Below, one piece after another: positions 1,676-12,725 of a DNA stretch of 12,725 bases. This stretch comes from a virus (taxonomy: Duplodnaviria > Heunggongvirae > Uroviricota > Caudoviricetes): IMG/VR virus record IMGVR_UViG_2859827302_000006, one strand, 5' to 3'. How positions within the stretch are numbered: position 1 is the stretch's first letter; each line of letters begins with the position of its first letter. The translations under genes were made by a program, and so were the position numbers. The notes beneath the pieces were generated by a model that saw only the letters and a program-made list of their open reading frames with translations, made no database searches and had not been told where the DNA came from.

Positions 1676-1945
1676 TATGGGGATCCCCACCTACCGGAAT
1701 TTTTTTCCGGTTAAACGTTAATCAGGCTGGTGGGCTTTACCTGTTCGGTAGGTGTTATGATTATCGTAATACCTTTCCCCCAATGGGGTAAAAGCATCAA
1801 CCGTAACGAAAGTCGTTATGGTTGCCACCGATACCCCAAATTTGGGTATCACGAGTAAGCCCCAAAATCTGGGTGTTACTCTTACTACCCAAACTACGGG
1901 TAGTTTCCGTAGTTTCATGGTCGAGTTGCAGATCTGCAACTCCCC
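1676..1945. other. Hairpin-dense non-coding region (perfect palindromes and tandem CCCAAA...GGGT stem-loops); candidate structured RNA or protein-binding array
   Basis: Palindromes TGGGGATCCCCA (1678-1689), CCGGAA-T5-TTCCGG (1694-1710), GATACCC-caaattt-GGGTATC (1830-1850), AGTAAG...CTTACT enclosing CCCA/TGGG (1854-1886), TACCC-aaactac-GGGTA (1886-1902), and the perfect 20-bp GAGTTGCAGATCTGCAACTC (1923-1942). The three overlapping ORFs of 60-76 aa here have no ribosome-binding site and do not look coding. Confidence 0.35.
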
Positions 1946-2077
1946 CATTAACCACAGGCGAATTTCCGCCTTCGGTCATTCCTTAATCATCTGCGTAATC
2001 ATAATGATTATTCAGCAAGCGCAATTTTGCGCTTTGCTTTAAGTTCAGCGAGTTACCGCGCCGACTTCCTCAAATTG

Positions 2078-2436: not shown

Positions 2437-2470
2437 TGTGCCCCCATCGTTCTGATAGTCTGGTGTCGTC

Positions 2471-2535
2471 GGGTCCTTCCTGGAATTATGGCCCGTTACG
2501 GGGCGGCGACCTCGCGGTTTTTCGCTATTTATGAG
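2471..2535 (+). other. Lambda-type cos site (cos-1), cosN cohesive-end sequence GGGCGGCGACCT at 2501-2512, inverted relative to cos-2
   Basis: CCCGTTACGGGGCGGCGACCTCGCGGTTTTTCGCTATTTATGA matches the phage lambda cosN region and left-end leader with a one-base difference; the flank GGGTCCTTCCTGG resembles the lambda cosQ-side sequence. Confidence 0.75.
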
Positions 2536-2547
2536 CTTTTTTAGAGG

Positions 2548-2699
2548 GAGGTTGTTGTTTAATTGTTTGTCATATCCATTTGATAACTAAGTAAAAATAA
2601 AGAGCAATACAACAACCTGATAGTGTTTTTTTGATGCTAAAAATAAAAAAATGCTAATTGAATCAAATAGTTTTAAAAAAATACGTGGTTGTTGTATTG
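2548..2699. repeat. AT-rich region with three GGTTGTTGT elements (two direct, one inverted) on the cosB side of cos-1
   Basis: AGGTTGTTGTTT at 2549-2560; CAATACAACAACC at 2605-2617 is the exact reverse complement of GGTTGTTGTATTG at 2687-2699. Confidence 0.4.
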
Positions 2700-2729
2700 C
2701 GTATTTGATGGCGTAACAGAAAGTGATTT

Positions 2730-3170
2730 TTAACTTTGCTGTTCTGTAACGACTGATTGTTCCATGCTGGCACGGCGAACGCTTACGGCATGACGCCACC
2801 CAGCCAGAAAGCCAGCCATTTTATTTCGTGCCTTGCTCACATCTTCCGGTGAATAGCCGTAAATCTGCAAACCTTCATCAAATCGATGTTCTGTTTCTTC
2901 ACTGGAGTACTCGTCACGCTCAGATGAAAGCAGCCTGGCAAACATAATTTTTTCCAGCGCACTGGTTTCTACGTGATATCTGATGGCCTCAAGACGGCTT
3001 TTACCTGAAGACCAAAGCAATGTATGCCCGATGTGATAACCGCCAGACTTTCCGCGATCCGCATTAAGATACGGCATCCCCTGTTTGGTCCATGCGCGAA
3101 TAGTGGTTCTGTTAACCTTGAAATGTTCAGCTATTTCCTGCTGACTTACAAAACAAGCTTTATCAATCAT
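2730..3170 (-). CDS. Terminase small subunit homolog (lambda Nu1-like winged-HTH N-terminus); candidate packaging-redirection protein
   Basis: N-terminus QQEIAEHFKVNRTTIRAWTKQGMPYL parallels lambda Nu1 KKQLADIFGASIRTIQNWQEQGMPVL; ATG at 3170 with AAGGTA ribosome-binding site; cos-2 lies about 70 bp upstream, as in lambda cos-Nu1. At 146 aa it is shorter than Nu1 (181 aa). Confidence 0.85.
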   Translation of the reverse strand: MIDKACFVSQQEIAEHFKVNRTTIRAWTKQGMPYLNADRGKSGGYHIGHTLLWSSGKSRLEAIRYHVETSALEKIMFARLLSSERDEYSSEETEHRFDEGLQIYGYSPEDVSKARNKMAGFLAGWRHAVSVRRASMEQSVVTEQQS

Positions 3171-3240
3171 AATGTTACCTTAACCGCATGGTTAAATATT
3201 AATCAAGTGGTGGTGGTGTCACCTTCACGGAAAAACGTCA

Positions 3241-3300
3241 TAAATAGCGAAAACCCGCGAGGTCGCCGCCCCGTAACGGGTCCATATGCCGGAAAGGACC
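3241..3300 (-). other. Lambda-type cos site (cos-2) with cosQ-like flank, oriented toward the Nu1-like gene
   Basis: Minus-strand reading GGTCCTTTCCGG...CCCGTTACGGGGCGGCGACCTCGCGGGTTTTCGCTATTTATGA matches lambda cosQ/cosN/left-end sequence; cohesive-end 12-mer is the complement of 3260-3271. Confidence 0.8.
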
Positions 3301-3302
3301 CG

Positions 3303-3328
3303 TAAAAAAAGCCGGATTTCTCCGGCCT
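3303..3328 (-). terminator. Rho-independent terminator ending the capsid operon
   Basis: Minus-strand GCCGGA-GAAA-TCCGGC followed by T7, immediately after the stop of the 137-aa gene. Confidence 0.75.
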
Positions 3329-3332
3329 TGTC

Positions 3333-3746
3333 TCAGATGGTTTTCAGTATGCGCTCGATGTCGCCATCATCGCCCGGGTTTCTGCCGTCGTATGCCATGC
3401 CAGCTGAAACGGCTTGCGGGCTGTGCATGTCCATAAAGTTTTCAAAGGCTGCGGTAAGCTCCGGCGCAACCTTCTGGCGTTCCTGCTCTATGGTCATGCT
3501 AAGGATGCTTTTAGCCGTACCAACATCGATACAAGGCACGTTTGCCATTGCACGTAACAGCGGCTGATAGTCGTTATGCTCATGAAGCGCCATAATCGCA
3601 TCAGCGCGCGGCTTGTCCTGCTCTTCCAGTTTGTTGAGTTGATATACGGCCTCGTAGGTTGATAAACCTCTGTCAGCCATTGCCCGCGCTTCGGCTTTAA
3701 ATTTACTCGCCAGCGGTAGCGTCATGATGCTTTCATTCGTTGCCAT
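3333..3746 (-). CDS. Hypothetical protein (137 aa), last gene of the capsid operon
   Basis: ATG at 3746 with GGGGGA ribosome-binding site 4 nt upstream; 12 nt downstream of the D-like gene stop; protein-like composition; no recognisable motif. Confidence 0.65.
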   Translation of the reverse strand: MATNESIMTLPLASKFKAEARAMADRGLSTYEAVYQLNKLEEQDKPRADAIMALHEHNDYQPLLRAMANVPCIDVGTAKSILSMTIEQERQKVAPELTAAFENFMDMHSPQAVSAGMAYDGRNPGDDGDIERILKTI

Positions 3747-3758
3747 CGTTCCCCCTGC

Positions 3759-4094
3759 TTATCGGGCCAGCGGCTGAACGGATACGCCAGAACCCGCAAA
3801 GGCGGCGCATTTTTTCGCATCGGTGTCGACGCTCTCGGGCCAGTTCACGGCGGCGATATTAAAGATCCCCGTCTTGTAGCACTGTGCTGATTTCTGCTTT
3901 GACGTGTCCACGGGGTACGAAGTCAGATAAACAGCCTTTCCGGACGCCTGACCATCCCACGGCTTAAACTCGCCATTGTCCGCCAGCATCAGCGGGGTAA
4001 ATTCCTGAATGACGCCAGCATCAGCGGCAAAATGTACCAGCGTCGTGGATACCTGCTGACTGCCTGCAAATAACTCAATGTATGGAGTGTTCAT
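3759..4094 (-). CDS. Head decoration protein homolog (lambda gpD-like), 111 aa
   Basis: Size matches gpD (110 aa); C-terminal YKTGIFNIAAVNWPESVDTDAKKCAAFAGSGVSV parallels gpD [35 protein letters not shown]; ATG at 4094 with GGGGGA ribosome-binding site. Confidence 0.7.
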   Translation of the reverse strand: MNTPYIELFAGSQQVSTTLVHFAADAGVIQEFTPLMLADNGEFKPWDGQASGKAVYLTSYPVDTSKQKSAQCYKTGIFNIAAVNWPESVDTDAKKCAAFAGSGVSVQPLAR

Positions 4095-4105
4095 AGAATC
4101 CCCCG

Positions 4106-5161
4106 TTAACCAATTTTGACGGTAACAAATTTGCGAATGTCTGCCGGCACCGGCTGCGGTGCGCTGTGCGTCTGCACGTACTCAATCGCCGGATCGCCGT
4201 CCTCAATCCAGTTTTTCGGGTAGTACATGTTTTGCGTTGCGCCCGTTCTTACCGCTTCCTGATCCATAATCGCACCATAAGCAACCAGCCCTTTATTGTT
4301 GGTGTTGCCCAAGACCAGCAAATCAGGCTCAAGGAAATGTTTTTCGGTGCCGTCGCTGTCGGCGTATTTGCCGGAATAGACGATAAGGGCAATATCGCCC
4401 AGATAGCCTTTAAAGCTCACCACTTCGCCCAGGTTTTTACAGGCCAGTTCTGCGGCGGATTCTGAACCACGGGAAAGATCGTACAGTTCGCGGAATTTTT
4501 TAAAGCTGCGTAACGTGCGCCATACCTCAGCGCCCATAATCATGACGTTTGCGGGGCAATTGCCCTGATCCGCATAAAGCTCGATATCATAGATTGGATC
4601 GTGGGTTTCTTTGTCCTGCTCGGACCATTTACGGCCTTTGGCCTGCTCTATGATGTTGTTTTCCGGCATCTTCCAGTCGATTTCATAGCGTTCTATGCCT
4701 TCGCCCTCAATGATGTTTTTTCCGGTCGTTACCGCATTTACCGCCAGCCATTCAACACGCGCTTTAATAGCGTTTACCTGGCGGCGCATGTTGCCAGTAA
4801 TCAGGCGCATACGGCGATAGGTTGGGTCGTTAAGCTGTGCCGGATCTTCTCCAGCCATGCGCATGATGGTTTTTGTTGGATCGATTTCGTGCTTTGGCTT
4901 CATGTAGCCAGGTTTAATCGTGCTGGTTTCGTACCCTTTATCGCGCTGTACCTGGCTACCAACCATAGGCGAGCAAAACGCTGACATAGTGACTTCTTCG
5001 GTGTCCAGGTTATCCAGCATGATGTTTTGGGTGTTGAATGTCGCTACTTTCGGGAAAAACAGCGTGGTAAACAGCGGACTAAATTTAAATTCCGCAATAT
5101 CCCCGCGATTCAGGTACGCAAAAAGCTGGTGAGTGTTAAGTGCCGTTGCTTTGCCTGCCAT
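4106..5161 (-). CDS. Major capsid protein homolog (lambda gpE family), 351 aa
   Basis: Collinear motif matches to lambda gpE along the length: KPGYMKPKHEIDP, RRMRLITGNMRR, SFKGYLGDIALIVYSGKY, FLEPDLLVLGNTNNKGL, YPKNWIEDGDPA; ATG at 5161 with GGGGGTG ribosome-binding site. All + strand ORFs inside it are antisense. Confidence 0.9.
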   Translation of the reverse strand: MAGKATALNTHQLFAYLNRGDIAEFKFSPLFTTLFFPKVATFNTQNIMLDNLDTEEVTMSAFCSPMVGSQVQRDKGYETSTIKPGYMKPKHEIDPTKTIMRMAGEDPAQLNDPTYRRMRLITGNMRRQVNAIKARVEWLAVNAVTTGKNIIEGEGIERYEIDWKMPENNIIEQAKGRKWSEQDKETHDPIYDIELYADQGNCPANVMIMGAEVWRTLRSFKKFRELYDLSRGSESAAELACKNLGEVVSFKGYLGDIALIVYSGKYADSDGTEKHFLEPDLLVLGNTNNKGLVAYGAIMDQEAVRTGATQNMYYPKNWIEDGDPAIEYVQTHSAPQPVPADIRKFVTVKIG

Positions 5162-6483: not shown

Positions 6484-6657
6484 TTTTTCAAGCGTCTCAC
6501 TTCGTCGCAGTTGGGATTTTCGGTTTTTCTATGTGTGTGTTTCATAAGTATTTTTTTACCCCTCACTTTTGAGGATGTATACAGGTCGAAAAGTGAGGGA
6601 GAGCGGGCTAATTTTGGCCCTCTTTCTATCCCCCTCGCTTTTGCTCCTCACTTTTAT
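6463..6657. repeat. Iteron array, putative replication origin: seven copies of CTCACTTTT (two variants, one inverted) around an AT-rich spacer
   Basis: Copies at 6465-6475, 6478-6488, 6495-6504 (variant), 6561-6570, 6589-6599 (inverted), 6634-6642 (variant) and 6646-6655; AT-rich stretch 6510-6560; lies directly 3-prime of the Rep ATPase gene. Confidence 0.6.
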
Positions 6658-8054
6658 AGCGGCGCTACATCATCCCCATCGATACGAATAACCCCATCTT
6701 TTTCCAGCTTGTACAGCCAGCGCCGGAAGTTTTTCATTTCATACCCCAGCTTTTTCATGTCATCACGTAACAGCGGGATCGTGCACTTGTCGCCGTTCTG
6801 TGTGCGTGAACGGATGCACCCCCATAGCGCGGTATGGTTTTCCGTCTTGTTCCCTGCCTCCTCGATGCGCTCCAGTTCAACAGGAGGGCGCGGATCATCC
6901 ACCACCACCAGCGACGTGATTAATTCACCGTCAGCGTCGGTAAAAAGCTCCACCACGCGTAAGTCATATGCGGCTTCTTTGAGTTCCTCCGCGTCCTTCA
7001 TTTTGGTGCATGAGATAACCAGCGCTTCGCTTCCTGCGTCCTCCCTGCGTATCCGGTATTCAGCATCCAGCGAAGCACGAAATGCACTGGAACCGCGCGC
7101 GCCTTTCGTCTCATCCTTGCCGGAATGGTGAACCACCAGCACCGTGGCCCCTGTGCGTCGTTTCAGTTCGTCACAACCACGGATAAACGCCCCCATATCA
7201 CGGGAATCATTTTCATCATTCCCACCAAAGCAACGCGCCAGCGTATCCAGAATAATCATGCGTACAGGTTTACCCGTTTCCCGCTCCACCTGACGGGCAG
7301 CGATAACCATTTCATCAACATCAAGCGGGGCAGCCGGAAAGATGGGGCGGTTTACCAGATACAGATTTTTCACCTGCTCATCGTGCACAACCTCCCAGGC
7401 TTTTACACGACGCGGAACACCTATACCGCCTTCACCAACCACATAGAGAACCGCACCATGTGCAACCCTGCGGCCTCCCCACTGGCGACCAGTGGCAACA
7501 TGGCACGCCCACGATCCGGCAAGGAATGATTTATAGGACCCGCTAGCTCCGTATATGCTGCATAGCGATACCGCCGGAATAATCCCCTTAACCACGTAAT
7601 CCAGTTGCGTGTCGTATCCGGTAGATCCAACGCTCATCGGTAGCGTGGTTTTTCGCTGGTGGTTTTTTTCTTCCGCCGGCTCTTTCCCGCGCACCCGTTC
7701 CAGGTATTCGCGCCAGTTCTCCCGCATATGGCTGTGCATCCCTTCGGGGTAATAATTCGCATCAGTTACACCCGCCGCCGCCAGCTTGTGCGCAATGGCA
7801 TTAATATTTGATGGCCTGATGTGGCCTGCCTTGTACAGCCGGACACAATAGCGCCCCTCGTCGATGATTCTCAGGTCTGCCAGTTCATCCAGTTGATCAT
7901 CAGCCAGCACAACGGGAGGCACATTATCGCCAGCCAGTCGCCCGTCCTGTTCCTGCCACTGTTTCGCATGTGCCCAGGCATCACTACCCGCAAAAATAAT
8001 GACTTCGGTCATCTTGTCGTAAGGCTGTTTTTTTAAGTTCGGTGCGCTTTTCAT
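6654..8054 (-). CDS. RepA-like RecA-fold (AAA_25-type) replication ATPase, putative initiator-helicase (466 aa)
   Basis: Walker A GASGSYKS, Walker B-like MIILDTLARCFGG, motif VLVVHHSGKD and a basic C-terminal region; ATG at 8054 with AGGGG ribosome-binding site and ATGA overlap with the upstream gene. The N-terminal 150 aa have no recognisable primase motifs. Confidence 0.85.
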   Translation of the reverse strand: MKSAPNLKKQPYDKMTEVIIFAGSDAWAHAKQWQEQDGRLAGDNVPPVVLADDQLDELADLRIIDEGRYCVRLYKAGHIRPSNINAIAHKLAAAGVTDANYYPEGMHSHMRENWREYLERVRGKEPAEEKNHQRKTTLPMSVGSTGYDTQLDYVVKGIIPAVSLCSIYGASGSYKSFLAGSWACHVATGRQWGGRRVAHGAVLYVVGEGGIGVPRRVKAWEVVHDEQVKNLYLVNRPIFPAAPLDVDEMVIAARQVERETGKPVRMIILDTLARCFGGNDENDSRDMGAFIRGCDELKRRTGATVLVVHHSGKDETKGARGSSAFRASLDAEYRIRREDAGSEALVISCTKMKDAEELKEAAYDLRVVELFTDADGELITSLVVVDDPRPPVELERIEEAGNKTENHTALWGCIRSRTQNGDKCTIPLLRDDMKKLGYEMKNFRRWLYKLEKDGVIRIDGDDVAPL

Positions 8055-9386: not shown

Positions 9387-9606
9387 GTACCCCTCCGCAT
9401 TTTTTTTCGTTAGAAATAAGCGTTCTTCTTTCCTGTTCATCGCTCAGGAATACGCAGACCTCACCGCTAAGGCGTTTAAGTAAGCCGATGATTGCCCCTG
9501 ATTCGCTGTCGGTCATCATGCTAGGGTAATCCTCTGCCAGTGCGCAAATAACTTCGATTTGGTGGGCGCGTTCTGCTGCCTGTTGTAGTGTGATTTCCTG
9601 GCTCAT
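9376..9606 (-). CDS. Hypothetical small protein (76 aa)
   Basis: ATG at 9606 overlaps the preceding stop (ATGA); GGGGG upstream. Confidence 0.5.
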   Translation of the reverse strand: MSQEITLQQAAERAHQIEVICALAEDYPSMMTDSESGAIIGLLKRLSGEVCVFLSDEQERRTLISNEKKCGGVHVQ

Positions 9607-9803
9607 AAGCCTACCCCCTGACGAATACGGGCAGCAAATACCATCACGCAGCCAGCCGGAGATTGCTGGCGTGCTTCCTGTTCGCTGGTGGCCTCAATGG
9701 TAATCACGCGCGGTTGTGCCGTGCTCAGGGCGATAAAACGCCAGATGTATTTATTCAGGTTGTGCGAGTCCCGCCCTTTCGGGTGTGTGGTATGATTTCT
9801 CAT
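9603..9803 (-). CDS. Hypothetical small protein (66 aa), first gene of the main leftward operon; it is the C-terminal part of the 428-codon stop-free frame
   Basis: In-frame ATG at 9803 with GAGG ribosome-binding site, about 90 nt downstream of the predicted minus-strand promoter. Confidence 0.4.
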   Translation of the reverse strand: MRNHTTHPKGRDSHNLNKYIWRFIALSTAQPRVITIEATSEQEARQQSPAGCVMVFAARIRQGVGL

Positions 9804-9900
9804 AGCTACCTCGATACTGTTGCTATCGTTGGTGGTTAGAAGCCCCGTTACTGCTCCTACAGTGCGGGGTTTCGTCGTTTCTGTGCCTTTCATCAATAAG

Positions 9901-9981
9901 GTGTAAGACACAATGTAAAACAATGGTGTCTTACACGTCAACCCTTCAAAATATTTTTTTTTCGTGTATATTGTCTTACAC
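9901..9981. promoter_or_regulatory. Divergent promoter/operator switch between the RHH gene (+) and the main operon (-)
   Basis: Inverted repeat GTGTAAGACAC (9901-9911) / GTGTCTTACAC (9926-9936) plus half-site GTCTTACAC (9973-9981); + promoter TTCAAA (9945-9950)-16 nt-TATATT (9967-9972); minus promoter TTGACG (complement of 9936-9941)-17 nt-TTACAT (complement of 9913-9918). Confidence 0.55.
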
Positions 9982-10002
9982 CAAAAACATGAGGGGTTAA
10001 AC

Positions 10003-10182
10003 ATGGCAACGGGTCCAAAGAATGCAAAATCACAATCTGTAACTGCACGTATTGCCCATGAAATTATTGAAGGCATGGAGAACGTGAAAGAAGAAGGCGA
10101 AAGCACGGGACAGTTTATAAACGCAGCCATGCGCGGCGAAATCAAACGCCGCCAGCGCCGCAAGGCCAAAGAGCAGGAGTAA
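10003..10182 (+). CDS. Ribbon-helix-helix (CopG/Arc/MetJ-like) DNA-binding protein, about 59 aa; candidate repressor of the switch
   Basis: ATG at 10003 with GAGGGG ribosome-binding site; the pattern SVTARIAHEIIEGMENVKEEGESTGQFINAAMRGEIKRR fits a beta-strand plus two helices; the ORF-track start at 9964 (GTG) lies inside the promoter. Confidence 0.7.
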   Translation: MATGPKNAKSQSVTARIAHEIIEGMENVKEEGESTGQFINAAMRGEIKRRQRRKAKEQE

Positions 10183-10224
10183 CCATCACCAGCGCCGTGG
10201 TGTGAGTAACTACGGCGCATTGCT

Positions 10225-10413
10225 ATGCAGGACAACACAATGACCGATAAAGAATTGACCAAAACATTATCACCGGCACGGAAAAGACGGCGCAGAAAGA
10301 TAGAGCATGAATCAGAAAGATTCGCGCCATGTGCTTTTGCCCTTGAGCAATTCCTTAAAGAGTACAGGGAAAAGCGCTCATTGCAGGTATGGCAACGAAC
10401 TGAACCAGACTGA
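10225..10413 (+). CDS. Possible small Arg/Lys-rich protein co-transcribed with the RHH gene (likely start ATG 10240)
   Basis: Weak AGGA ribosome-binding site; basic stretch ARKRRRRK; followed by a + strand terminator. Could instead be untranslated. Confidence 0.35.
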   Translation: MQDNTMTDKELTKTLSPARKRRRRKIEHESERFAPCAFALEQFLKEYREKRSLQVWQRTEPD

Positions 10414-10490
10414 TTGCATTGCCCACCAGCCGCAAATGTGGCATTATTGGCAATGCTCATGCGTTGGGGATAACGTGTAGCTTGTGTCGA

Positions 10491-10520
10491 GGGGCCACCG
10501 TAGCGGGTGGCCTTTGTTTT
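10491..10520 (+). terminator. Rho-independent terminator of the RHH transcription unit
   Basis: GGCCACC-GTAGCG-GGTGGCC (10493-10512) followed by TTTGTTTT; a second weaker hairpin plus T-run lies at about 10613-10646. Confidence 0.6.
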
Positions 10521-10526
10521 GCCCGT

Positions 10527-10889
10527 TATTCGGCAATTGTGGCGCTTCTCCACATGGTTGATATAATCCCACTGCTCAGATTCATTTTTTGCGCAGTAGG
10601 TTAATTGTTCACAAAGGCGCTCCGGCAACGGGGCGCTTTTTGTTTTTATTAGTTTGTAGAAACCTGACTCAGAGATAATGCTCATATTCTGATTGCCGTC
10701 AGGGGTGTAAGTTAAATTTACTCCCTTTTTATCATCAAACATCTGCAACGCTCTGGCGTTAACAATATTGGTTTCACTCCCGCCAGTAAGGCCGGAAATA
10801 ACCGGAATAATTTCGGCAAAATTTTGCAGATTCTGTTTTTCAGGACGAACGAAGCCCCGCCCTTGTTCGGGAGAATATCCAGTATTCAT
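10527..10889 (-). pseudogene. Possible decayed gene with a Bro-N-like antirepressor N-terminus; the frame runs on without a stop to 9603
   Basis: The first 95 or so codons look protein-like and include ISESGFYKLIKTKSAPLPE, reminiscent of the Bro-N motif; downstream the frame is antisense to the RHH operon and rich in C/S/R; weak ribosome-binding site. Confidence 0.3.
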
Positions 10890-11495: not shown

Positions 11496-12725
11496 TTATA
11501 TTTCTCTGGCTATTGGCAATGTGGTTACGTTTTCATGTGTTCCCGCCAGTATCCCTAACCGCTCCGTCCACATATCCAGCGCGTCACGTTTCGCATCCAG
11601 ATAACGGGAATGGTTATAGACTCGTTGCATCCCTGGCATCTGATGACCTGTAAGCTGCTCCACGACGTGAGGATCCACGCCTAAATCGTTCAGCATCGTT
11701 GTAAAGGTGCGCCGGATGTCATGCAGTGACCAGTGAGGGTGTTTTAGCCTCCTGTGCGCTAATCTGCCGTACTGCGACACGCTTGTTTCCTGTTTCACTT
11801 CCCCCAGCAATAAGCCCGTGTGCCTGTTCTGCTCCACCAGCTGCGTGACGAACGGCAGTATTGCTTCCGGTATGGGCCGGAATATTGCCACCTTCGTTTT
11901 GCTGTGTTCTTTCGGCACGGTCCAGAGCATTTCGGTAAAATCCCACTCGCTGATCTCCGATAACCTCAGTTCTACCGTCCGGCATCCGAAAACAATCAGG
12001 AGGCGGATTAGTGCGACGTAGTAAGGGGAAAATATTTTTTTGTCCAGTGCCTGCAATAATTCGCCAAGTTCTTTGGTGCTTAAGACACGCTCGCTTATAT
12101 CCGGTTTTTTCCCAACGTCCGCCACACTCATATCATCAAGAACGTTGCTGATTGCATAGCGCCGCCTCCGGCAGAACTTAAGCGCCTGTTTGCACGTCTG
12201 TAGCAAGAATCCGGCAGTAACAGGCGTTCGCTTTGCCACCTGGTCAAAACAGGCCAGCCAGTGCCGTAGCTCGCATTTATCCAGCGGCATAGCACCAATG
12301 TGCTGTATTACGTGATTATTAAGGCGCTTTTTCAGGGCGGCATAATCCACGCGGTTTTCCTTTACGTAAGACTCAAGCCAGTAGGTAAGCGCATCGCCAA
12401 CCGTTACGGGCTTTAACGCTTTCTGTACGGTGTAATTCATCTCATGACGTGGATTTTTCCCCTCAGCAAGCCAAGCGCGACACTGTGCCGCTTTTTCCCT
12501 GGCAGCTTTCAGACTCAGATCAGGATAATTTCCCAGCTTAATCCGTTCCGGTCGTGCTCCCCTTCCCGTTCCGGCCCTGTAGGTGAAATACCAGGTTAAA
12601 AGGCCGCTGGTTGAATGCCTGACGCTCAGGTTTCCACCGTCATTAAGAAAGGCTGTTTTTTGGGCGGGTGTGCCGTTGATTTTCCTTAGCTGTGTATCAC
12701 TCAGTTTGTTAAGTGCTCTGCGCAT
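11496..12725 (-). CDS. int: Tyrosine site-specific integrase, P4-type (409 aa); start codon at the window edge
   Basis: N-terminal arm-binding region with the LNDGGNLSV motif (compare P4 Int LADGGGLYL); C-terminal catalytic signature with R in GCRTVELR, HxxR in LHDIRRTF and the Tyr region GHQMPGMQRVYNHSRYL. Confidence 0.92.
   Translation of the reverse strand: MRRALNKLSDTQLRKINGTPAQKTAFLNDGGNLSVRHSTSGLLTWYFTYRAGTGRGARPERIKLGNYPDLSLKAAREKAAQCRAWLAEGKNPRHEMNYTVQKALKPVTVGDALTYWLESYVKENRVDYAALKKRLNNHVIQHIGAMPLDKCELRHWLACFDQVAKRTPVTAGFLLQTCKQALKFCRRRRYAISNVLDDMSVADVGKKPDISERVLSTKELGELLQALDKKIFSPYYVALIRLLIVFGCRTVELRLSEISEWDFTEMLWTVPKEHSKTKVAIFRPIPEAILPFVTQLVEQNRHTGLLLGEVKQETSVSQYGRLAHRRLKHPHWSLHDIRRTFTTMLNDLGVDPHVVEQLTGHQMPGMQRVYNHSRYLDAKRDALDMWTERLGILAGTHENVTTLPIAREI

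Follow-up and report, generated by a model that had tools for sequence, protein, structure and literature searches.

The hairpin-rich stretch at 1676-2040 of the analysed DNA (12,725 nucleotides in all, hereafter the window) forms the middle of a non-coding tail of 685 bp (1470-2154) that runs from the attP arm to the last gene of a satellite. This satellite is an Rpp-type PICI with a lambda-like cos that is integrated 8 bp after phoQ. Our preferred reading, held tentatively and at a little under an even chance, is that this tail is a DNA-level mosaic resembling the BIME/RIP elements of E. coli, with a function that we infer.

A hairpin-dense stretch without coding capacity

The preliminary description of this DNA had called 1676-2040 non-coding and unusually dense in hairpins, and both points are confirmed, with each of the features that it described found in place. 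The + strand of this stretch has a folding energy of -144.4 kcal/mol as against -90.9 +/- 5.8 in dinucleotide shuffles (z -9.2) and the - strand gives a z of -10.0 with no shuffle folding equally well. Sliding a 200-nt frame along the whole window gave z scores of -4.6 to -6.6 for 1701-2100, compared with a window mean of -0.7 (sd 1.8). No credible ORF is present, as the ORFs of 40-76 aa in the hairpin region had no Pfam or PHROG match and in homologues their frames are disrupted, whether by stop codons, by frameshifts or by a missing start codon. An ORF of 46-49 aa at 1572-1721 was likewise rejected as coding on account of an in-frame TAA in many relatives.

Island boundary, attachment site and packaging end

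The att core and island boundary lies at 1459-1469 (AAATATGTCC) where it overlaps the phoQ stop codon, with island DNA beginning at about 1470. Comparison with the phoQ region of island-free strains had been proposed as a way of placing this boundary and gives a clear result: of 5,426 E. coli genomes about 4,800 have phoQ homology that goes no further than 1469; the segment is therefore part of the island and not ordinary host intergenic DNA. The attB of one genome (L292) reads TAAATATGTCC followed directly by ATACTTCAC, and a matching att junction was found at the int end of a related island (L001). Beside the att core an IHF consensus (AATCAATGGTTTG, 1489-1501, - strand) is preceded by a tract in which 12 of 12 positions are A or T, and an equivalent site occurs in L161. 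Next come the arm-type direct repeats ACTACACCATTA, ACTACACCGTTC and GGTGCACCGTAT of the attP P-arm (1547-1582, + strand), which are repeated next to int at the other island end (24104-24135 in L001) and are more than 90% conserved in islands at other att sites.

The tail ends at its usual neighbour, the last island gene (2155-2436, - strand), which encodes a 93-aa protein of phrog_1561. Beyond this gene is a cos at 2470-2720 (+ strand) with the cohesive end GGGCGGCGACCT at 2501-2512, which is of lambda type by comparison with the lambda cosN sequence, and with cosB-like inverted repeats at 2604-2629 and 2675-2700, the first of them enclosing an IHF consensus at 2610-2622. An Rpp (redirecting phage packaging) homologue follows at 2730-3170 on the - strand (PDB 6hlk RppC, E 5.7e-31). 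The terminus, which is the int-distal one, had been described as adjoining the packaging module, and the Rpp homologue together with the lambda-type cos from 2501 bears this out. The accompanying remark that such termini commonly hold accessory cargo finds an example in one relative (L007), which has an Abi gene there.

This map also bears on the proposal that the hairpins form an array of protein-binding sites. Integrase-binding sites within the stretch are not supported, as the arm-type direct repeats lie at 1547-1582 with their duplicate at the int end, and a search for attP arm repeats (short direct repeats common to both arms) found none within 1676-2040. Nor are terminase-binding sites there, since cos and the cosB-like repeats stand at about 2470-2720, beyond the last gene. 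The proposal survives in altered form, with the repeated motif being the IHF consensus, found here mainly at 2081-2157.

Palindromes that keep pairing

From the att side inwards the hairpin series opens with a truncated palindrome copy at 1672-1690 (core GGGGATCCCC, 1679-1688), which in relatives is perfect over 22-26 bp (CGATATGGGGATCCCCATATCG), and a hairpin ACCGGAA-TTTTT-TTCCGGT at 1693-1711 whose stem is kept in 22 variants. Three further palindromes lie at 1750-1774, 1775-1791 and 1798-1824; at the place of the first two, relatives have unrelated sequences. The replacement sequences in L188 and L150 have short palindromes of their own, as judged by eye.

Module B, a discrete 124-bp unit (1824-1947), holds three hairpins and a 20-bp palindrome. 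The three tandem stem-loops with an ACCC(C)AAA...GGGT core noted previously are indeed present at 1830-1850 (GATACCC-CAAATTT-GGGTATC), 1853-1881 and 1884-1904 (alternatively 1892-1914) and jointly form one 75-bp imperfect palindrome, and the 20-bp palindrome at 1923-1942 (GAGTTGCAGATCTGCAACTC) is perfect, as had been reported. The module recurs as one unit, 77-100% identical, in 706 of the 5,426 E. coli genomes, and all 11 places inspected (in 10 records) were satellite tails, with two copies carried by L005. Most copies are at least 94% identical beside much more diverged genes; in L011, for example, the module is 95% identical and the neighbouring gene 79%. Sequence conservation in module B extends to the loops, and a purely structural role fails to explain this. 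A MITE-like mobile unit was considered and rejected because neither terminal inverted repeats nor target-site duplications were seen when the flanks of 17 copies were inspected by eye.

Downstream of module B are the palindromes AGGCGAATTTCCGCCT (1956-1971) and CTGCGTAATCAT-A-ATGATTATTCAG (1991-2015), followed on the + strand by a hairpin at 2014-2038, with its inner stem at 2018-2033, that runs into TTTGCTTTAAGTT (feature 2014-2045). The preliminary description had proposed a + strand terminator at about 2012-2040; the structure is there and with TTTGCTTT it is the sole terminator-like element of the stretch, but a consensus terminator scan left it uncalled and we regard it as a weak candidate. 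Repeat analysis identified 2040-2062 (GGCGCGGTAACTCGCTGAAC, - strand) as a degenerate duplicate of the last gene's 3' end. Ten or more additional short palindromes lie between 1679 and 2140, and several tail palindromes are perfect through the centre over 20-26 bp.

The compensatory base changes that had been suggested as a check were found in part of the tail. For two module-C hairpins 88.3% of cells were paired compared with 79.1% when shuffled, and 24 compensatory cells were counted against 5.3, with none of 500 shuffles as high (slid controls), whereas module A showed no significant covariation. The stem of the 2014-2038 hairpin is preserved through compensatory changes. Across tails at least ten unrelated stems were found at one same position, and most tails have a hairpin at a near-fixed distance beyond the last gene's stop codon, with a stem sequence that varies. 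Many tail modules are short palindromes that keep pairing and not sequence.

A co-oriented IHF-type motif and oriented Chi sites

Near the last gene the tail is built of repeat units, each consisting of a variable palindrome, a T/A-rich spacer of about 9 nt and an exact IHF consensus (WATCARNNNNTTR), all in the same orientation. In the window one unit (2068-2103, + strand) comprises the palindrome CCTCAAATTGAGG (2068-2080), the spacer TTTCCGAAAA and the consensus TATCAACGGGTTA (2091-2103), and the other (2116-2157, + strand) the palindrome CGATGTTCGCC-GCT-GGCGAATTTCG (2116-2140), an AAAA spacer and the consensus TATCAACCAGTTA (2145-2157), which overlaps the stop codon of the last gene. Within 1676-2040 there are only two one-mismatch sites (1720 and 1866), the exact sites being those at 2091-2157. 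Among 41 non-redundant tails the consensus occurs 73 times in one orientation and twice in the other, with 0.87 expected. The window as a whole has 6 matches against 1.1 expected, at the att core, in cosB and twice in the tail among them, and L161 has 8 against 0.29 expected, six of which are in its tail on one strand. A palindrome ends 8-11 nt upstream of 45 of the 65 distinct IHF-type sites, and variation between sites falls on the degenerate W, R and N positions except for one near-constant G. As the motif overlaps the last gene's stop codon, and its internal copies arose as duplicates of the gene end, this enrichment is in part inherited by duplication and not independent. Binding of IHF to the tail sites is predicted from the 9-position consensus.

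At 1720-1733 (+ strand) a near-consensus IHF core (AATCAGGCTGGTG) overlaps a top-strand Chi site (GCTGGTGG, 1726-1733), and this segment is invariant in 20 of 22 module-A variants. The Chi site lies 767 bp to the left of the mature right end (2500), and its orientation, by the rule for RecBCD entry (PMC12315714), is predicted to be the active one when RecBCD comes in from the right end at cos. The window contains 9 Chi sites, all within the island, with 0.39 expected, and in five satellites Chi density is 0.85 per kb compared with 0.23 per kb in host flanks. Taken over the whole island, Chi sites show no orientation bias (4 top, 5 bottom). Within this Chi-rich element Chi density is highest in the tail: tails hold 38 top-strand and 19 bottom-strand sites in 28.4 kb (about 2 per kb) and at least one top-strand site is present in 29 of 41 tail clusters. 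In exact match to GCTGGTGG, strand, over-representation and orientation bias within tails the sites have the sequence properties of a Chi hotspot. No recognisable Gam or Rec function is encoded by the satellite, and in lambdoid phages Chi-rich right ends go with a missing Rec module (PMC12315714).

Tails are mosaics shared among satellites

Some part of 1462-2160 has a match in 1,495 of 5,426 E. coli genomes and none in the other 3,931 (about 72%), and there was no match in 50,697 phage records. Tails consist of discrete modules that are swapped, duplicated and reordered among satellites whose packaging, replication and integration modules are otherwise unrelated. The window tail is 97-100% identical to those of islands with a non-aligning replicase region (L001, L002), the block 1540-1740 is more than 90% conserved across islands at different att sites, module B in L007 accompanies arm repeats of a different integrase type, and a similar tail stands behind a Q-antiterminator gene in another type of satellite. 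Tail length ranges from about 450 to 1,500 bp and composition is also highly variable. Tails of the L238, L263 and L274 type are without hairpin density (z -0.5 to -2) and have GTGAC direct repeats instead. The host gene beside the tail is directed away from it at several att sites, and capsid-forming PICIs have their tail elsewhere than at the end packaged last. One related satellite encodes a ProQ/FinO-family RNA chaperone.

What the tail might do

In the preferred reading, a BIME/RIP-like DNA mosaic, IHF would bind the repeated tail sites and bend the DNA, and the bent DNA together with the palindromes would make a compact nucleoprotein spacer with attP on one side and the last gene and cos on the other, comparable to the palindromic repeats, also bound by IHF, at the 3' ends of E. 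coli transcription units. RecBCD that enters the exposed right end at cos would meet top-strand Chi after 767 bp, stop there and be switched to RecA loading, and Chi-stimulated recombination among co-resident satellites could account for the mosaic make-up of tails as well as for the very high identity of units such as module B. In a secondary role the palindromes may serve as generic 3'-end hairpins when either strand is transcribed. An extension of this reading, which we consider unlikely, makes the tail a dedicated cis-acting device peculiar to PICI-family satellites in which IHF-scaffolded palindromes and oriented Chi control the fate of DNA ends. RecBCD coming from the cos right end would be arrested and recombination-dependent multimer formation fed, in Rpp-type islands a protein speed bump might slow terminase shortly before the terminal cos, and module B could serve some host or helper factor as a conserved binding platform or as a decoy.

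A discrete RNA gene was among the first suggestions for this stretch and fared poorly. The covariance-model search against Rfam that had been put forward as a check returned no match at gathering threshold in the whole window and only chance-level ones in 1440-2800 (E 0.8-8, eukaryotic or viral models), no tRNA or tmRNA was found, and promoter-like sites numbered 2 against 2.8 expected. Neither strand is preferred: wobble pairs of the G.T and A.C kinds stand at 10:11 and the folding energies of the two strands do not differ in tails. Since tails differ by gain, loss, duplication and reordering of modules, they have no one RNA architecture in common, and with module A showing no significant covariation an independent sRNA or ncRNA gene is not supported. 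A cargo transcript of about 300-400 nt on the + strand, regulatory or acting in interference, starting near 1637 (TAGACA-17-GATCAT at 1601-1629) or near 1775 and ending at the 2014-2040 hairpin, would profit from the very strong predicted folding, the promoter-like hexamers at 1601-1629, the suitably placed terminator-like hairpin, a module B better conserved than adjacent coding DNA and the RNA chaperone of a related satellite. We nevertheless think it quite improbable, as no Rfam family matches even with E allowed to reach 10, promoter-like sites do not exceed the chance count, the - strand folds equally well or better without wobble bias, and the modular turnover of tails speaks against it. 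Searches of the literature for the tail, its motifs or sRNAs at the locus returned nothing, and the four diagnostic motifs, namely the Chi-flanking motif and three palindromes of the tail (one of them looked for as RNA as well), were absent from the searchable literature, which also counts against RNA cargo.

Transcripts could still be involved if the palindromes act as RNA hairpins that insulate convergent transcription units in both directions, protecting the 3' end of the late-operon mRNA on the - strand and stopping or stabilising phoQ or cargo transcripts on the + strand. The near-fixed distance of a hairpin from the last-gene stop in most tails despite many stem sequences, the significant compensatory changes, the reading of phoQ directly into the island with its native downstream region displaced, the + strand cargo gene that converges on the tail in L007 and the resemblance of the 2018-2033 hairpin to a weak + strand terminator are all consistent with this, and with both strands in use strand bias would be expected to be absent. 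Against it, T-runs are not enriched after hairpins on either strand (2.33 T per 8 positions downstream of 424 tail hairpins, which equals base composition) and the scan found no terminator in 1676-2040, observations on which an array of intrinsic terminators was rejected. Palindromes perfect through their centres are needless for RNA hairpins, the host gene points away from the tail at several att sites, and where one or two hairpins would suffice, 12 or more and a conserved IHF-type motif are left unexplained, so that we rate such a barrier as possible but rather unlikely. Neutral debris is an unlikely account: exchanges at a recombination-prone island end would leave gene-end fragments in unconstrained DNA, template-switch mutation would perfect quasi-palindromes and Chi-driven gene conversion would homogenise modules, the hairpins having no function. 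Degenerate copies of the last-gene 3' end stacked in the tail, the wide variation in composition and length, the lack of strand bias, the centre-perfect palindromes and the tails without hairpin density fit this well. It does not readily account for an 84-fold excess of the exact 9-position consensus with variation mostly at degenerate positions and fixed palindrome spacing, for compensatory change that is significant against slid controls, for Chi kept in the preferred orientation, or for module B at 94% identity or more in most copies beside much more diverged genes. The att-proximal recombination region proposed earlier has support in so far as the tail adjoins the att core, includes the IHF site at 1489-1501 and the arm repeats, and has a block (1540-1740) that is conserved across different att sites. 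That the hairpins themselves are integrase, excisionase or AlpA sites in an unusually long attP arm is highly improbable, as the repeats recurring at both island ends are those at 1547-1582 and not in 1676-2040, the hairpins reach about 690 bp from the core, unrelated palindromes replace them in relatives with the same arm repeats, and module B is found in L007 with the arm repeats of another integrase type.

Likeness to known systems and implications

REP elements are dispersed over every E. coli chromosome, and RIP/RIB elements (BIME-1) reportedly consist of REP palindromes flanking an IHF site. The tail shares with REP/BIME elements mosaic palindromic units at operon ends and an associated IHF consensus; like RIP/RIB it combines imperfect palindromic units with an IHF consensus site in a mosaic of variable unit number and order, lies in non-coding DNA at the 3' ends of transcription units, and has no agreed function, as is true of both. 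It differs in having no sequence relation to REP, in being absent from about 72% of E. coli genomes with all inspected copies in satellite tails, in IHF-type sites that all point one way and in palindromes that change from unit to unit and combine with Chi. Lacking the REP consensus and dispersal over all strains, the tail is an analogue of REP/BIME and not a member.

The satellite resembles phage LLS and its relatives (PMC12315714) in being cos-packaged without Rec or Gam of its own, in a Chi density above that of the host and in having Chi densest near the cos right end with the nearest Chi on the top strand. It is, however, a satellite, a kind of element outside that study, and its Chi bias is found only in the tail (38:19) and not over the island (4:5). 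Like the IHF sites of lambda attP and cosB (H', I1), the tail sites have exact WATCARNNNNTTR cores with an upstream A/T tract, and the island also has IHF sites beside the att core and in the cosB-like repeats; the tail sites differ in lying 350-680 bp from cosN and the att core, in tandem and up to 6 per tail, a layout that mismatches known intasome or packaging-complex geometry. The island resembles the EcCICFT073-type PICI, as described in the passages of PMC6739421 on Rpp and cos, in having an Rpp homologue, two lambda-like cos copies inverted around rpp and a cosB unlike that of lambda, and those passages make no mention of a non-coding tail past the last gene.

In Enterobacteria, PICIs rank among the main vehicles of gene transfer and of phage interference, and prior focus has been on their proteins and cos sites. 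A conserved tail architecture shared by Rpp-type, capsid-forming and other satellites would amount to a new candidate cis-acting module, with packaging, establishment or recombination as candidate roles, and would represent a compact, mobile analogue of the RIP/BIME repeats of E. coli. Were the DNA-end device to be real, the tail would join Rpp and cos in determining transfer efficiency. For satellites that lack Gam and Rec, the Chi result points to a possible way of coping with RecBCD, and it would carry the rule of "no Rec module, many Chi sites" over to the parasites of lambdoid phages. The mapped boundary, arm sites and modules may aid both the delimitation of PICIs in genomes and the design of synthetic ones.

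Several other identities were considered for the tail. A replication origin was rejected as the tail is shared despite different replicases and a DnaA box is absent. The segment 1643-1680, with a GCGCACC hairpin plus TGTCTATA, we took to resemble the R388 nic region, but the T that makes the resemblance is G in most relatives and an oriT mimic was dismissed. CRISPR-repeat, boxB/nut, sigma-54 and tRNA anticodon-loop mimicry gave no convincing match by eye. For the protein of the last gene (ORF93) a fold search gave no PDB match with E <= 0.001 and no functional clue; it belongs to a narrow family and its model has three helices (pLDDT 72).

Hairpin-dense region and its host satellite

Folding of the hairpin-dense region at 1676-2040 gave z = -9.2 on the + strand and -10.0 on the - strand with no shuffled sequence folding as well, and in a sliding scan 1701-2100 ranked with the window's most structured segments. 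The three tandem hairpins of the preliminary description (1830-1850, 1853-1881 and 1884-1904) and its perfect 20-bp palindrome (1923-1942) are all present and, as it proposed, there is no credible ORF, the short ORFs having no protein-family match and being disrupted in homologues of the region. The observation of hairpin density is confirmed. The hairpin with a T-rich tail at 2014-2045 is also there but a scan called no terminator in the region.

The window consists of host phoQ (1-1461) and, from about 1470 to its end at 12725, a phage satellite with all genes on the - strand. These include a P4-type integrase (11496-12725), a lambda gpE-like major capsid protein (4106-5161), a gpD-like decoration protein (3759-4094), a homologue of the PICI protein Rpp (2730-3170; PDB 6hlk RppC, E 5.7e-31) and, as the last gene (2155-2436), a 93 aa product of unknown function (phrog_1561). 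At 2501-2512 the window reads GGGCGGCGACCT, which we take to be the lambda cohesive end oriented as in the conventional lambda map, and cosB-like inverted repeats come next; a second cos-like copy is found inverted at 3231-3302. Because of the Rpp homologue, the lambda-like cos and this inverted second copy the island is an Rpp-type PICI. The two cos-like copies (2470-2541 and 3231-3302) flank rpp in inverted orientation. The cosB-like repeats GCAATACAACAACC / GGTTGTTGTATTGC lie in 2604-2700 with an exact IHF consensus between them (2610-2622), and a third, GGTTGTTGT, is at 2549-2558.

The island boundary was placed by comparison with island-free DNA downstream of phoQ, as had been suggested, using 5,426 complete E. 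coli genomes, all of which contain phoQ. Homology with the window ends at 1469 in about 4,800 genomes and continues in about 600, so that 1676-2040 is not ordinary host intergenic DNA. An island-free strain reads TAAATATGTCC/ATACTTCAC at the phoQ junction (slash), and the int-side junction of a near-identical island (L001) has a similar core, AAATATGCCC. Direct repeats ACTACACC(A/G)TT occur at 1547-1582 and again beside int at the other island end, and an exact IHF consensus at 1489-1501 adjoins the att core. Together the junction, arm repeats and IHF site place the attP P-arm at about 1470-1610. The idea that 1676-2040 is an array of integrase-binding sites does not hold, since the arm-type repeats are those at 1547-1582.

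A modular tail shared among satellites

The hairpins belong to a non-coding tail (1470-2154) between the att core and the last gene, which BLAST against the E. coli genomes and local comparisons divide into a conserved att-proximal block (about 1494-1740), a variable palindrome zone (1740-1826), module B (1824-1947) and module C units (about 1981-2154). Palindromes of module B and of module A, the hairpin and Chi part to its left, make up most of 1676-2040. The modules recur in other orders and copy numbers, and with respect to the last gene they always point the same way. They are found at the end away from int in several kinds of satellite: Rpp-type PICIs, capsid-forming PICIs with HNH, TerS and TerL, elements with a ClpP-capsid fusion and one satellite embedded in a helper prophage. 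The att sites of these satellites are at phoQ, tqsA, clpS, thiM, mppA and a prophage capsid gene. Any part of the tail is present in only 1,495 of the 5,426 E. coli genomes, and nothing tail-like was found among 50,697 phage records. Tails are 97-100% identical between islands whose replicase regions do not align, which argues against the tail as a replication origin.

Module B is a discrete 124-bp unit with constant ends, found in 706 genomes. It occurs twice in one tail (L005), with unrelated DNA between the copies, and in another satellite (L011) is 95% identical compared with 79% for the adjacent gene. Such conservation suggests either a specific interaction or very recent spread. The L005 tail (2945-4475) is 1.5 kb of non-coding DNA whose module B copies are 97% identical and 434 bp apart. 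L011 (NZ_CP148328.1, 10,790 bp), a record submitted as a plasmid, resembles a satellite that has excised and circularised. It carries int, alpA, primase, the ClpP-capsid fusion, a last-gene homologue and module B, the attP junction being visible in circular form.

In another satellite (L293) it is a Q-antiterminator gene that precedes a related tail, so the tail is a feature of the island end rather than of one gene. This satellite (13321-27564), located at dinD and without capsid genes, encodes the Q-family antiterminator, a ProQ/FinO-family protein, SSB, several PerC proteins and a YeeE/YedE transporter, and ends in rearranged copies of the same modules. In a satellite inside the major capsid gene of a lambdoid prophage (L007, 1441-3042) an abortive-infection gene lies on the opposite strand between the arm repeats and module B, so the tail can hold defence cargo. 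An alternative tail type has GTGAC direct repeats in place of the hairpin/IHF units and is not hairpin-dense; this satellite family can therefore do without the hairpins. Four to five such repeats, about 10-11 bp apart, directly follow the last gene in L238 (2783-2850), L157, L195 and L216, and further in the L238 type has Chi and inverted Chi about 55 bp apart.

IHF-type sites and Chi

Between the module-C palindromes runs a conserved linear sequence that is an exact match to the IHF consensus WATCARNNNNTTR. Six matches occur in the window against 1.1 expected, a number reached in 0 of 200 shuffles: the sites at the att core (1489-1501) and cosB-like repeats (2610-2622), 2091-2103, 2145-2157 (overlapping the stop codon of the last gene), 11378 and one in phoQ. 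In L161, a relative whose tail is longer, there are eight against 0.29 expected, six of them in the tail on a single strand. In the 20.5 kb of 41 non-redundant tails, 73 matches have the window's + orientation and two the opposite one, against 0.87 expected. The internal copies arose by duplication of the last gene's end and so are not independent of one another. Of 65 distinct contexts, 45 have a palindrome whose end is 8-11 nt upstream of the site; these palindromes vary widely and the spacer TTYCCGAAAA is conserved. The sites vary at W, R and N positions, one near-constant G excepted, the fixed positions being invariant by construction of the pattern search. From the consensus, IHF is predicted to bind at the tail sites.

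Chi (GCTGGTGG) lies on the top strand at 1726-1733 and is near-invariant across tail variants. Nine Chi sites occur in the window, where 0.39 would be expected (1726, 6169, 6905, 7133, 7655, 8120, 9684, 10423 and 11834), all in the island and none in phoQ. Mean density is 0.85 per kb across five satellites of different types and 0.23 per kb in the host DNA that flanks them. In tails it rises to 2.0 per kb (38 top-strand, 19 bottom-strand), and one or more top-strand sites fall within 700 nt of the last gene in 29 of 41 tail clusters. Given the lambda-like orientation of cos, the mature right end falls at 2500, and RecBCD travelling leftwards from there reaches Chi 1726-1733 from its 3' side after 767 bp, the active orientation. 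Over the whole island Chi orientation is unbiased (4 top, 5 bottom), which limits this argument to the tail. Comparison of part of the island ORFs with Pfam and PHROGs revealed no recognisable Gam or Rec module. In lambdoid phages that lack a recombination module, Chi sites are reported to be numerous and to cluster at the right end in the same orientation, in a study that does not mention satellites (PMC12315714).

RNA or DNA element

The proposed structured RNA gene found little in its favour. The suggested Rfam covariance-model search gave no match even at permissive thresholds, promoter-like sites in the region were not above chance, and T-runs after stems were at base-composition level on both strands (424 hairpins, 40 tails). 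Covariation, also suggested, was not significant in module A, where four compensatory pairs against 2.4 were within shuffle range (67 of 500 shuffles as high), and was significant in two module-C hairpins, with 24 compensatory cells against 5.3 in shuffles, 88.3% of cells paired against 79.1%, and a covariation score of 0.227 against 0.078, values that neither shuffles nor slid controls came near. As at least four unrelated stems also represent the second of these hairpins, pairing itself is maintained at these positions. This pairing has no strand specificity (G.T and A.C mismatches 10:11) and the strands do not differ in folding over 70, 150 or 400 nt. A dedicated strand-specific RNA is not supported, and a true ncRNA gene is highly doubtful. 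Generic hairpin effects may occur in transcripts of either strand, and an RNA-level barrier is the main rival, in our judgement an unlikely one. An RNA hairpin needs no palindrome that is perfect through its centre, and such palindromes are found here (20 bp, 1923-1942) and in relatives (one of 22-26 bp).

As the simplest account we tentatively favour, at somewhat less than an even chance, a DNA-level BIME/RIP-like mosaic acting as a spacer between attP and the last gene with cos. In E. coli, RIP/RIB elements (BIME-1) combine a palindromic unit with an IHF site in mosaic arrays at transcription-unit ends. The tail is likewise built of palindromic units and IHF-type sites in mosaic arrays at a transcription-unit end, but has no sequence relationship to them and is restricted to satellites. 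In such a spacer IHF could impose an architecture on the tail DNA, and Chi might protect from RecBCD and stimulate recombination among satellites, which would explain why modules are shuffled yet near-identical across divergent satellites. Neutral recombination debris is a distinctly unlikely alternative. The tail and its motifs were not found described in the searchable literature; known ingredients (palindromic mosaic repeats, IHF sites, Chi) stand in a new satellite-specific arrangement, whose value is a clear architecture open to simple decisive experiments rather than a demonstrated new mechanism.

Other structured parts of the island

The cosB-like region (2604-2700) folds strongly as well (z about -5 to -6), as do two further 200-nt stretches. 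One, 6501-6700 (z -4.9), falls in the gap that precedes the AAA_25 replicase gene, a possible site of the origin. The other, 9801-10000 (z -6.7), is inside a 428-aa ORF (9603-10889, - strand) that has anti-repressor-like matches close to the N-terminus and matches a transcriptional repressor at the C-terminus; several small genes are annotated on both strands of the equivalent region of L001, and the ORF may be a fusion or an artefact.
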